Numbered from the stretch's first letter, positions 3,041-37,180 are shown. The stretch: DNA of 61,710 nt from Minisyncoccia bacterium (GCA_041740795.1 JBGSLH010000004.1:1-61710), one strand, 5' to 3'. The notes: generated by a model from the sequence alone, not told the origin. Translations and numbers: made by a program.

Positions 3041-3340
3041 CAAGAAACAGCCCGAGGACTTAGTCCTCGGGCTTTTTCTTGTGGTGCGCGCGGAAACGAA
3101 GCGAAGCTTCGTTTCAAGGATTCGAAAGGCGCAGGCCTAGGGCCCCCGCATCCATAAAGCGACAGCGAAATGGATCTGGGATGGCCGAGCCGGGGTCGCG
3201 AGCACTTAGGAGAATTCGACCGACAGGGAAGAATTATACTTAGTGACTTGTGACCGGATCCTGGATGTTTTTAACTGTGGGGCGAATTCGGTAAGCAACA
3301 TGACTGTGATTTTAAGAACCTGTGCCCGAATCCTGGTGCG
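3041..3340. repeat. tRNA-anchored multi-hairpin element
   Basis: Inverted copy of the tRNA 3' end at 3082-3092, stacked hairpins, and a degenerate direct copy CGAATCCTGGTGCG at 3327-3340. Confidence 0.6.
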
Positions 3341-34360: not shown

Positions 34361-36499
34361 ATGACAAAACACAATATCTGGAGCATCTCCATCATCGTAC
34401 TTTTATTCGCAGCATTACTCACTCCCTTAATCGTTGCGGGGAGCCTGTACTTTCCGTTCGTCACTGGAAAGGTGTTCATGATCCGGATAATCGTCTCGCT
34501 GGCGACGGCTCTGTGGCTTGTCCTTATTCTCAAAAAACCTGAGTTCCTGCCGAAGAAAAGCTCAGTACTCATTACTTCTGCAGCATTTGTGGCATGGCTT
34601 GCTTTTGCAAACATCTTTAGTGTCGACTCTTCGAACAGCTTTTTTTCAAACTTTGAACGTATGGAAGGTTGGTTCACACATCTGTACTTATTCCTGTTTC
34701 TTCTTGTTGCATCTTCTGTACTCCAGACAGAAAAATTATGGAACTGGTTTCTTGCAACGTCTGTAATCGTTGCGAACTATATCGCACTGTATGCAACGTT
34801 CGACAGTACTGCTCGAACACAGGCGATTCTGGGAAATTCAACCTATGTAGCCATTTACGCGCTCTTCAATCTCTTTTTTGCTGTACTTCTCGCATATCGG
34901 ATCTACAAAAGTACATTGGACAATATCGCGTTGAAGTACACAGGAATACTGTATTATGTTTTGTCGGTCATTCTCTTTGTGTATGTAATCTTCAGAACGC
35001 AGACACGAGGAACGGTTCTTGCACTCGTATTCTCGACGATCTTGTTTCTGATTCTTTCTGCTATTTCATATTGGAAGAATAAAAAAGTGCGTATTGTCAC
35101 TCTTACACTTGTCATTCTTTCTATTCTTGTTGCAGGACTTTTTTGGCAAAACAGAAACGCTGCGTTCATCCAGAACAATCCGATGCTTGTCAGGGTAGCT
35201 ACGATTTCTGCAAGTGAAGGTACAGGAAAAGCCCGACTAGTGAACTGGAACATTGCGATCAATGGAATAAAAGAAAACCCATTACTTGGATGGGGACAGG
35301 AAAACTATACGTATGTGTTTGCTCAAAAATACGATCCTCGGATGTATGCACAGGAGCCATGGTTCGATCGGACTCACAACGCATTTCTCGACTGGTCTAT
35401 TCAGGGCGGTATTCCGGCATTACTGATCTATCTCGCACTCTTTGCAACTGCCGCATACACATTCAAAGTTTCAACATCACTTACTCGAACCGAAAAGAAC
35501 TTGATGATTTCTCTTTTGGCTGCATACGGAATCCATAATATGTTTGTGTTCGATAACTATTCGAGCTACCTCATGTTCTTCGTCGTACTCGCTTTCGCTA
35601 TTCATCATAGTCAAAAAGAAAAAATAAAAATCATCCTGGATGAAAAGATGAAACAGGCTGCAGTAATATTTTTGGTATTACTTCTCATCCTTGCTTCATA
35701 TTTTACCGTTATAAAACCACTGAGCGCTAGCCGAGAATTGATTACAGTGTTTTCTCAAAAAGATGCATACAAGGTTTTGGATATATATAAAAGTATCCTA
35801 GAAAAAAATTCGTTTGGAAGTGATGAGACCACAATACGTCTCTTGAGTGAGGCAAATAATTTCATGAAGGTGGACAATGCTGAATTTCAGAAAGCATACC
35901 TAGACTTTTCAACAAAAGCCGGTGAAGAGATGATCGTCCGTGGTCCAGATGATGTCCGACGACTTGAAACGTATGGAACATACCTGTATCAGGTAGGAGA
36001 TATTTCAAAGTCAATCAGTATCTTGGAAAAAGCACAAACTCTTGCGCCCAATCGACACAACAATCTCTACACTCTCGGCTTTGCCTATATCGAAAACAAG
36101 CAGTTGGACAAGGCGATGGAAGTATTCAAACATGCATACGAGCAGCTTCCTGAAAATGAGACTGCGAGAACCTACTATGGAGCAGTGCTTCTTTTGAGCG
36201 GTGATACAAAGGGAAAAGATTTTATAGGAAACTATTCCTATAAGAATCCAATCTTCCTCCTCGCATTCGGAAAAACGAAGCAGTACAAGGAAGTGATCAA
36301 AATACGTGAACAATTCAAATCTGACAATCCTACTGATTATCAGAATCAGGTTTCGCTTGCGGTAGCCTACGTTCTTGATAAACAGCCTGCAAAAGCGATC
36401 CAGATCTTGAGAGAAGTGCAAAAAGCCGTGCCGGAATTCAAGGCACAAGGAGATGCGTTGATCAGGGATATCCAGACAGGGAAGAGTATCGTGAAATAG
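34361..36499 (+). CDS. O-antigen ligase / oligosaccharyltransferase family protein with C-terminal TPR
   Basis: Multi-TM; TQTRGT, RLVNWNIA, GWGQENY, RTHNAFLD, HNMFVFDN; TPR-like helices. Confidence 0.88.
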   Translation: MTKHNIWSISIIVLLFAALLTPLIVAGSLYFPFVTGKVFMIRIIVSLATALWLVLILKKPEFLPKKSSVLITSAAFVAWLAFANIFSVDSSNSFFSNFERMEGWFTHLYLFLFLLVASSVLQTEKLWNWFLATSVIVANYIALYATFDSTARTQAILGNSTYVAIYALFNLFFAVLLAYRIYKSTLDNIALKYTGILYYVLSVILFVYVIFRTQTRGTVLALVFSTILFLILSAISYWKNKKVRIVTLTLVILSILVAGLFWQNRNAAFIQNNPMLVRVATISASEGTGKARLVNWNIAINGIKENPLLGWGQENYTYVFAQKYDPRMYAQEPWFDRTHNAFLDWSIQGGIPALLIYLALFATAAYTFKVSTSLTRTEKNLMISLLAAYGIHNMFVFDNYSSYLMFFVVLAFAIHHSQKEKIKIILDEKMKQAAVIFLVLLLILASYFTVIKPLSASRELITVFSQKDAYKVLDIYKSILEKNSFGSDETTIRLLSEANNFMKVDNAEFQKAYLDFSTKAGEEMIVRGPDDVRRLETYGTYLYQVGDISKSISILEKAQTLAPNRHNNLYTLGFAYIENKQLDKAMEVFKHAYEQLPENETARTYYGAVLLLSGDTKGKDFIGNYSYKNPIFLLAFGKTKQYKEVIKIREQFKSDNPTDYQNQVSLAVAYVLDKQPAKAIQILREVQKAVPEFKAQGDALIRDIQTGKSIVK

Positions 36500-36534
36500 A
36501 CTTGCGTTATTTCAGATGTGTGATATGATGTTGA

Positions 36535-36600
36535 AGTGAGTGTTGGTATATCCAACTCCACGAATGTCTGCGAAAAAGCCACCGTAAGGTGGCTTTTTCG
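36535..36600 (+). ncRNA. Candidate small RNA 4 (about 65 nt)
   Basis: TTGCGT-16-TGaTATGAT(36524) promoter; ends in terminator 36571-36600. Confidence 0.5.
36571..36600. terminator. Perfect bidirectional terminator
   Basis: CGAAAAAGCCACC-GTAA-GGTGGCTTTTTCG. Confidence 0.85.
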
Positions 36601-36693
36601 TTATCTGGTTTTATACGGGCTTTGTTGACCAACGGGTGCCAACTCCAAGTGAATGCCTAAGTGAGTGCAGCCGTTGGTCAGCACAACCAACAT
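36571..36693 (-). ncRNA. Candidate small RNA 5 / leaderless 30-aa ORF (36693-36601)
   Basis: Minus-strand TTGTTA(36728-36723)-17-TATACT(36705-36700); ATG at predicted TSS; long hairpin 36622-36686. Confidence 0.5.
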
Positions 36694-37036
36694 GTACACA
36701 GTATAAGAGTTTTCATAATAAATAACAATCGAAAAGTGGATGAAACTTTATAAAAAATTTATGTCACAAATATTTTGTGCGCCTCCTTCGGCTGCTTCAG
36801 AATTATTTCCAAAGCAAATCTTTTACAAAAATTTTAAAAAATAAATCTAAAAATTATTTTTTAAAAAACTTTTTTCAAAAATAAAATAAAAAAATAAAAA
36901 ATATTTTTTTTAGTTATCCACAAAATATTTTTATAAAAAATTGTTTTATATTTTATATGAGAGAAAATGAATAGAGGTAATAATTAATTAAGTCGAAATT
37001 ATTGCTTATAATTATAGGTAATTATTTTTCAAAAAA

Positions 37037-37180
37037 ATGCCAGCAAAAAAGAAAGCAGTAAAAAAAGTAGCGAAGAAAAAAGTTGCTAAAAAAGCTGCTC
37101 CAAAAAAGAAGGTTGCAAAGAAAACAGTTAAAAAAACTGTAAAGAAAGTTGCAAAGAAGAAAACTACAAAGAAAAAATAG
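37037..37180 (+). CDS. Histone H1-like lysine-rich protein, 47 aa (not in ORF track)
   Basis: MPAKKKAVKKVAKKKVAKKAAPKKKVAKKTVKKTVKKVAKKKTTKKK; followed by terminator. Confidence 0.85.
   Translation: MPAKKKAVKKVAKKKVAKKAAPKKKVAKKTVKKTVKKVAKKKTTKKK

Follow-up and report, generated by a model that had tools for sequence, protein, structure and literature searches.

Does the spacer ahead of secA in this Minisyncoccia bacterium encode two small RNAs that act on one another, and what might such a pair do? In the window, by which we mean the whole 61,710-nt stretch of DNA that was analysed, a 230-bp spacer lies between the gene for a Wzy_C/TPR membrane protein (34361-36499, plus strand) and an AT-rich stretch, which is followed by a 47-aa Lys-rich gene and then by secA. 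An earlier note had described in this spacer two convergent small RNA genes that stop at one terminator and share three boxes in permuted order, and had suggested that they form an undescribed module.

Boxes and transcription signals in the spacer

The three boxes lie where the note had placed them, all as plus-strand direct repeats: box A (AAGTGAGTG) at 36534 and 36659, box B (CCAACTCCA) at 36552 and 36639, and box C (GAATGTCT / GAATGCCT, GAATG(T/C)CT) at 36562 / 36651. Their order is A-B-C in one set and B-C-A in the other, again as described, and when we scanned the 653-kb genome, each 9-mer box taken singly occurred at chance frequency and the combinations A..B..C and B..C..A occurred nowhere else. 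The second set is flanked by a 22-nt inverted repeat (36618-36639 vs. 36667-36688).

Both promoters and the shared two-way terminator were likewise found at the positions given earlier. The promoter of the short RNA, hereafter RNA-1 (36502-36529, plus strand), consists of TTGCGT (36502-36507), a 16-nt spacer, and a TG-extended -10 element, TGaTATGAT (36521-36529), which by our reading of the sequence puts the start 1-2 nt ahead of box A; a cTTGAC/TTGC..-N16-17-TGCTATAnT arrangement is found upstream of GTGAGTG in all relatives. On the minus strand, the promoter of the long RNA, RNA-2, is TTGTTA-17-TATACT (36728-36700). The intrinsic terminator common to both RNAs in this genome (about 36571-36600, both strands) is a perfect hairpin (13+13 bp) that sits between an A-run and a T-run. 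On the basis of promoter, terminator, and covariation, we predict RNA-1 to be a transcript of ~70 nt (36534-36604, plus strand; fold z=-6.8) and RNA-2 to be a transcript of ~123 nt in this genome (36571-36693, minus strand; fold z=-6.1).

A search of positions 36500-36730 against Rfam 15 at gathering thresholds matched no family, nor did a search with the homologous RNAs from 15 relatives. The matches returned for the spacer in E-value mode were all sub-threshold and driven by the terminator, as was a weak match to the RNAI family (23.5 bits vs. a 47-bit threshold). As judged from sequence comparison, the spacer pattern exceeds chance: both elements are conserved, with covariation, in five species of its genus and dozens of other families.

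RNA-2 folds into a covarying hairpin on the minus strand

That the long RNA is a hairpin was borne out by comparative evidence. The arms of the inverted repeat form a long stem (36618-36688, minus strand) around an apical domain (36639-36667, minus strand) that reads 5'-A' (CACUCACUU), C' (AGGCAUUC), ACU, B' (UGGAGUUGG)-3', so that the apical box order is permuted relative to that of RNA-1. The conserved part is an 86-nt hairpin (36610-36695, minus strand) that scores 82 bits with R1, our covariance model of RNA-2. In a MAFFT alignment of 19 sequences, RNAalifold predicted 29 pairs, 24 of which show compensatory changes on both sides, and 93% of the cells that should be paired were paired, compared to 68% in column shuffles and 35-42% in controls in which the partner was slid by 1-3 columns. 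The stem, at 23 bp, covaries while keeping a constant length.

Several lines of evidence place RNA-2 on the minus strand, as had been proposed. When the stem was read on the assigned strand, we counted 42 G·U compared to 12 A·C pairs. Across 57 loci, the promoter-like score averaged 8.6 on the RNA-2 strand vs. 7.5 on the opposite strand (p=3e-5), with scores of at least 10 at 15 loci on the former and two on the latter, and T-runs followed the hairpin in 22 loci on the RNA-2 strand vs. nine on the other. The wobble pairs between RNA-1 and RNA-2, moreover, fit only this orientation.

The apical consensus is GCACUCAC-AUA-AGAYAUUCG-UUUGGAGCU, in which CUC and GGAG are invariant across the 19 sequences. 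The C·C mismatch, an A/CUN asymmetric loop, and GGAG are all invariant beyond what pairing needs, and such features hint that RNA-2 has a job of its own. Together with the constant 23-bp stem, they are part of the case for our main alternative, in which RNA-2 is the working molecule, either as a protein-binding hairpin or, in some families, as the 5' leader of a small membrane-protein gene, and RNA-1 is a dedicated off- or on-switch that remodels its apical domain. We regard this as a tentative but serious possibility and return to it below where further evidence bears on it.

RNA-1 and the co-evolution of the pairing segments

RNA-1 (covariance model R2) is made up, from its 5' end, of box A, a hairpin that we call H1, boxes B-C, and the intrinsic terminator. 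Box A (AAGUGAGUG; 36534-36542, plus strand) forms the 5' end and is complementary to A' of RNA-2. H1 (UUGG-UAUAU-CCAA; 36543-36555, plus strand) lies within a stretch that in this genus is antisense to rodA, as described below. Boxes B-C (CCAACUCCA C GAAUGUCU; 36552-36569, plus strand) are predicted to be a single-stranded seed, or "toehold," and are complementary both to C'-B' of RNA-2 and to the rodA-like mRNA. The same plan is seen in relatives, in which a near-consensus promoter is followed by a 5' (A/U)UGUGAGUG box and the single-stranded tail ends in ..CGAAUGUCU before a strong terminator. When we folded 12 RNA-1 bodies from different families, H1 formed at the same place in all 12, from unrelated sequences that differ wholly in length as well (4 to 13 bp), and the C box was unpaired in every one. 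With its free 5' GUGAGUG box, variable hairpin, and single-stranded B-C tail, RNA-1 would have the appearance of a typical trans-acting sRNA.

The short RNA had been described as complementary to the apical part of the long RNA's hairpin. This complementarity proved to be both covarying and specific to cognate partners. In 31 curated cognate pairs of RNA-1 and RNA-2, the predicted BC:C'B' duplex had a mean of -19.7 kcal/mol, compared to -13.3 kcal/mol for non-cognate combinations (permutation p<5e-5); the duplex of the window's own pair is predicted at -25.4 kcal/mol. The real strands also paired better than did the same sequences with both partners reverse-complemented (-19.7 vs. -16.2 kcal/mol, Wilcoxon p=2.6e-5), a difference to be expected only when the transcribed strands can accommodate G·U wobbles. 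Box C varies widely among families (GAAUGUCU, GAAUAUCU, GAAAGUCU, CAAAUAUCU, AACAAAACA, CAUAAGUGCC), and C' of RNA-2 tracks it, also in genomes in which the two genes are unlinked. Box A is near-invariant, and where it is altered, it is altered in both RNAs, with compensatory variants GUGAGCG/CGCUCAC (loci L057, G340, and G428), AUGAGUG/CACUCAU (L055 and L153), and AUGAGCG/CGCUCAU (L054). Over the box A positions of 60 pairs, we counted 507 Watson-Crick, 51 G·U, 14 A·C, and 54 other combinations. B-C and C'-B' are colinear, and A:A' crosses BC:C'B' in a pseudoknot-like manner; bulges and mismatches are tolerated in the pairing segments, which drift.

We conclude from these comparisons that the predicted pairing is kept by compensatory evolution across this class of ultra-small bacteria (Parcubacteria/Paceibacteria), even where the genes are unlinked, and the proposal of an undescribed module of two complementary small RNAs is thus supported by both the covarying fold and the co-evolving complementarity. 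The free drift of box C among families argues against widely conserved mRNA targets of RNA-1, and the retention of mutual complementarity alone would also suit RNA-2 as the working molecule.

As direct repeats on one DNA strand near two promoters, the boxes might instead be where a protein binds the DNA, or the remains of a duplication, with no functional pairing between RNAs. We consider this very unlikely: the stems that enclose the boxes show the covariation of RNA helices, the differences between copies are biased toward G·U-compatible changes on the transcribed strands, and the boxes change yet stay matched on different contigs, unlike a fixed protein site.

Distribution and gene order

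A DNA-level search of 100 relatives, followed by locus-by-locus reading, recovered both elements from five species of the window's genus and pieces of them from many other families. Model R1 matched exactly one copy per genome in 68 of the 401 class genomes (17%, with a model of limited sensitivity), including 15 of the 20 genomes of the window's own order and members of ~20 further families. When 401 genomes from across the phylum were sampled, all eight R1 matches fell inside the same class, with no other sampled class positive. Relatives identified through secA carried the labels Candidatus Paceibacterota or Parcubacteria (Nomura-, Taylor-, Kaiser-, Zambryski-, and Vogelbacteria); RNA-2 was present in 30 of 80 named Parcubacteria secA flanks and was adjoined by RNA-1 in 24 of them. 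With model R2, RNA-1 was found beside RNA-2 in at least 45 loci and unlinked from it in others. Both RNAs are single-copy; most relatives within the order have them, as do many other families of the class.

The earlier note had suggested a search of relatives, and this recovered both elements with their covarying boxes, while showing that the convergent architecture is specific to the genus. Convergent genes with a shared terminator occur only in the window's genus, within which RNA-2 has its own terminator in three species (loci L003, L004, and L006). In most other families, the genes are in tandem, with RNA-1 preceding RNA-2 on the same strand at a distance of 130-375 nt; a divergent arrangement is seen in some. 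RNA-1 lies kilobases away or on another contig in families f71, f2, f70, and parts of f117, and even then remains complementary to its cognate RNA-2.

These results bear on the likeness to the par (Fst) RNA I/RNA II locus of Enterococcus pAD1 that had been pointed out earlier. A type I toxin-antitoxin system of this kind, in which the peptide MLVVLTNGCTHLGIHLELAPVGQQSPYKTR would be translated from the long RNA unless the short RNA prevented it, draws on the convergent genes, two-way terminator, and direct-repeat complementarity of this genome and on an ATG at the predicted transcription start. The 30-aa ORF opened by this ATG is indeed present in the window, but it is not conserved: three of the six same-genus copies have no in-frame start codon, the ORF of other families contains stops and frame-shifting indels, and changes in the stem compensate bases rather than codons. 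The peptide is also not hydrophobic, and the earlier judgment that it is not Fst-like is supported. The repeats here are permuted and not colinear as in par, and whereas toxin-antitoxin loci are distributed patchily, this module occurs class-wide, as a single chromosomal copy. The par-like layout itself is seen in the window's genus; elsewhere, tandem, divergent, or unlinked genes are found. Since the ORF is not conserved, the analogy is one of layout only, and we regard the toxin-antitoxin interpretation, which these data already contradict, as scarcely credible.

A different alternative is that RNA-1 and RNA-2 are two halves of one obligate bipartite RNA or RNP scaffold, a class-specific housekeeping particle in which neither part regulates the other. 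Both are single-copy, class-wide, always found in the same genomes, and co-evolving, their pairing is retained when the genes are unlinked, the helix arrangement is conserved, and they have long been syntenic with secA and the Lys-rich protein gene. We nevertheless judge this alternative unlikely, given that the pairing segments drift and tolerate bulges, unlike known catalytic or scaffold RNA cores, that H1 ranges from 4 to 13 bp, that no Rfam family is resembled, and that the model, whose sensitivity is limited, found RNA-2 in only 17% of class genomes.

Genes around the RNA pair

The order RNA pair, Lys-rich gene, secA is kept across many families, an old synteny. In the window, the Lys-rich gene (37037-37180, plus strand) encodes a 47-aa Lys/Ala-rich, histone-H1-like protein and is preceded by a perfect DnaA box (TTATCCACA) with ATTG(T) 14-19 nt further on (36914-36946, plus strand). 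The same motif occurs in L002-L007, L010, L013, L018, L045, L051, and other loci; it is promoter-like and in most families is found downstream of the RNA pair, driving a Lys-rich gene of 34-66 aa. A perfect DnaA 9-mer is present in about two-thirds of the RNA-pair loci, compared to 0.02 expected per 3 kb. We considered and rejected an origin of replication, as the spacer has a single DnaA box, which is part of this conserved promoter-like motif, and no clear GC-skew switch. Regulation of the adjacent Lys-rich gene, by analogy to Chlamydia IhtA-Hc1, was also rejected: complementarity of the Lys-rich leader to RNA-1 or RNA-2 did not go beyond that of shuffled sequences in eight genomes (z from -0.5 to +2.2).

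In families f117, f79, and related ones, a conserved 51-52-aa protein with two predicted TM segments (MRYAWVSLAILAIW...IGFRS) starts 7-30 nt past RNA-2 (loci L034, L037, L039, L042, L044, L047, L050, L054, L058, and L060); it had no match in Pfam or NCBIfam. An RNA-2 that ends this close to a start codon would fit the leader version of the proposal that RNA-2 is the working molecule. The gene is missing from this genome, in which RNA-2 stands alone, and we do not count the protein as part of the module here. In L026, the stretch between RNA-1 and RNA-2 contains ~2.5 tandem copies of a ~75-nt unit made up of the RNA-1 terminator and the sequence that follows it. Two other families, represented by L064 (953-1304) and L022 (1773-2109), have the gene for RNase P RNA within ~200 nt of RNA-1, which indicates that small-RNA genes cluster there.

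RNA-2 is not the SRP RNA or another known structured RNA

As a single-copy hairpin of ~90 nt with a conserved apical domain, encoded beside secA, RNA-2 resembles the 4.5S SRP RNA (RF00169) in size, shape, and neighborhood. Unlike the SRP RNA, it has no domain IV motif and does not match RF00169 or RF01854. Neither model matched any of 13 genomes, and a scan for the domain IV motif (GNRA loop and AGCA/AGG loops) gave only a match inside a coding region. We also found no true SRP54 GTPase (Ffh or FtsY) in the 13 relatives or in the 401 class genomes, in which the best SRP54 scores were no higher than 25 bits and covered only the P-loop, compared to 14 of 14 control genomes that scored. The absence of ffh and ffs in Parcubacteria has already been published (Nelson & Stegen 2015, PMC4508563), and our results confirm this known loss on a much larger sample. 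In a class without Ffh and FtsY, RNA-2 is not the SRP RNA, and we rejected this identity.

Other identities fared no better. The plus-strand box region resembles loop C of 5S rRNA, a resemblance that is gone in the family consensus. The tmRNA (which can also be two-piece), RNase P RNA, and 6S RNA do not fit in size and motifs: by our reading, neither RNA-1 nor RNA-2 has a T-loop or a tag ORF, and RNase P RNA is found as a separate gene in relatives. ARAGORN identified no tmRNA in the window or in the genome's 16 contigs; with a genome that is ~80% complete, the missing tmRNA may simply fall in a gap.

RNA-1 is predicted to pair with a rodA-like mRNA in this genus

We conducted an ungapped, genome-wide scan for sites complementary to the B-C region of RNA-1. 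Apart from its own antisense, the top site was GGACATTCGTGGAGTAGG (contig C3, ~3097-3125, plus strand), which scored 40 out of 45, compared to 34 for the next best. The site falls within a SEDS-family gene, at codons LQDIRGVGYN. A paralogue on contig C16 lies between mraY and murG, in the dcw cluster, and is thus ftsW, which leaves the C3 gene as the rodA-like copy; ftsW does not have the RNA-1-complementary site. On contig C8, a clpB-like site similar to C'B' was weak and interrupted and is probably a chance match.

The complementarity to the rodA-like mRNA extends through H1, with 15 contiguous bp and 25 Watson-Crick plus three G·U pairs overall (z=-7 vs. dinucleotide shuffles). It holds in the five same-genus species that were checked (G000, G001, G003, G005, and G007). 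In G005, the B box has CACC in place of CUCC, matching a synonymous rodA codon change from GGA to GGU, and RNA-1 of this species fits rodA better than it fits RNA-2; in G007, there are two rodA codon changes without compensation. These matches indicate that RNA-1 is, by complementarity, antisense in trans to the rodA-like mRNA in this genus, a feature that the earlier note had missed.

Of 18 genomes tested from other families, 13 gave no significant match; outside the genus, significance was reached in L008 (z=-3.2), with two further families borderline. Because the complementarity is missing in most families, a decoy logic built on rodA may be lineage-specific. If RNA-2 is the working molecule, the rodA match would be a recent side acquisition or incidental, and the lack of rodA complementarity in most families is consistent with this. 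The H1 region, on the other hand, is complementary to rodA and has no complementarity to RNA-2, which argues for one or more additional partners of RNA-1 in this genus. The RNA-2 loop of the window, AGGCAUUCACUUGGAGUUGG, resembles the rodA site, AGGACAUUCGUGGAGUAGG, and RNA-2 can thus be expected to compete with the rodA mRNA for RNA-1 here.

A model for the RNA pair

We confirmed from comparative evidence an apparently uncatalogued, class-wide pair of base-pairing small RNAs, for which we found no description of either member in the literature. For both predicted genes, the folds, strands, co-evolving complementarity, and rodA match were established at the level of sequence. As to function, our working interpretation is that RNA-1 is an sRNA and RNA-2 its dedicated partner or decoy, with the rodA mRNA as a second target in this genus; we see about an even chance that this is correct. 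A more ambitious description, in which the pair is either an obligate bipartite housekeeping RNP with a four-way junction, found in SRP-less Parcubacteria near secA and the Lys-rich RNA/DNA-binding mini-protein and linked to envelope biogenesis (rodA), or a natural toehold-exchange switch conserved over hundreds of species, seems to us improbable.

If RNA-1 and RNA-2 act as an sRNA and its decoy, the folds suggest how they would come together. RNA-2 on its own is predicted to form a helix between A' (CUC) and B' (GAG), with C' in the loop. The unpaired box C of RNA-1 would serve as a toehold and invade the apical C' loop; pairing would then spread through B:B', opening the internal A'/B' helix (CUC/GAG) of RNA-2, and the freed A' would capture the 5' end of RNA-1. 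The product would be a four-way junction formed by the RNA-2 stem, A:A', H1, and BC:C'B', with ~25-30 intermolecular bp, and the permuted three-box design would force just such a strand-exchange, four-way-junction complex. The two RNAs would titrate each other, probably with cleavage of the duplex by RNase III, for which this genome has a gene. RNA-2 carries a site complementary to the RNA-1 seed (BC:C'B' and A:A'), and as a decoy or sponge, it would set the amount of RNA-1 that is free to act on rodA. The order of the pairing steps, the junction, the involvement of RNase III, and the direction of regulation are thus what we infer for the pair.

Pairs of an sRNA and a sponge, or anti-sRNA, are known, among them SdsR-RyeA, GcvB-SroC, and RoxS/FsrA-RosA. 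RNA-1 and RNA-2 resemble these in joining a short, seed-bearing sRNA with a noncoding partner whose sole obvious conserved property is complementarity, and in this genus RNA-2 mimics an mRNA target site (rodA). They differ from them in being conserved and co-evolving class-wide while the seed itself drifts, and in the use of three permuted boxes that would capture the 5' end of the sRNA; they have no sequence or Rfam relationship to the known pairs, and a sponge role for RNA-2 is putative. We know of no described sRNA/sponge pair with a permuted three-box design. The proposed pairing is also reminiscent of CopA-CopT of plasmid R1 and RNA I-RNA II of ColE1, in which structured RNAs start pairing at an exposed loop and form a four-way junction, as we propose here. 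Those pairs are cis-encoded and fully complementary, in contrast to the pair described here, which has separate genes, is complementary over only ~25-30 nt divided among three boxes, and plays no part in replicon control.

Bacteria of the candidate phyla radiation (CPR) cannot grow alone and are without Hfq-type chaperones, and to our knowledge, RNA-based regulation in these organisms is almost wholly undescribed. The comparative support for this RNA pair is strong, with the pairing between the RNAs preserved over and above each fold, and it defines an RNA-RNA module in a lineage with genomes of ~650 kb, in which any gene that has been retained probably matters. In this genus, as judged by complementarity, the module points to possible post-transcriptional control of a peptidoglycan polymerase, the RodA-like SEDS protein.
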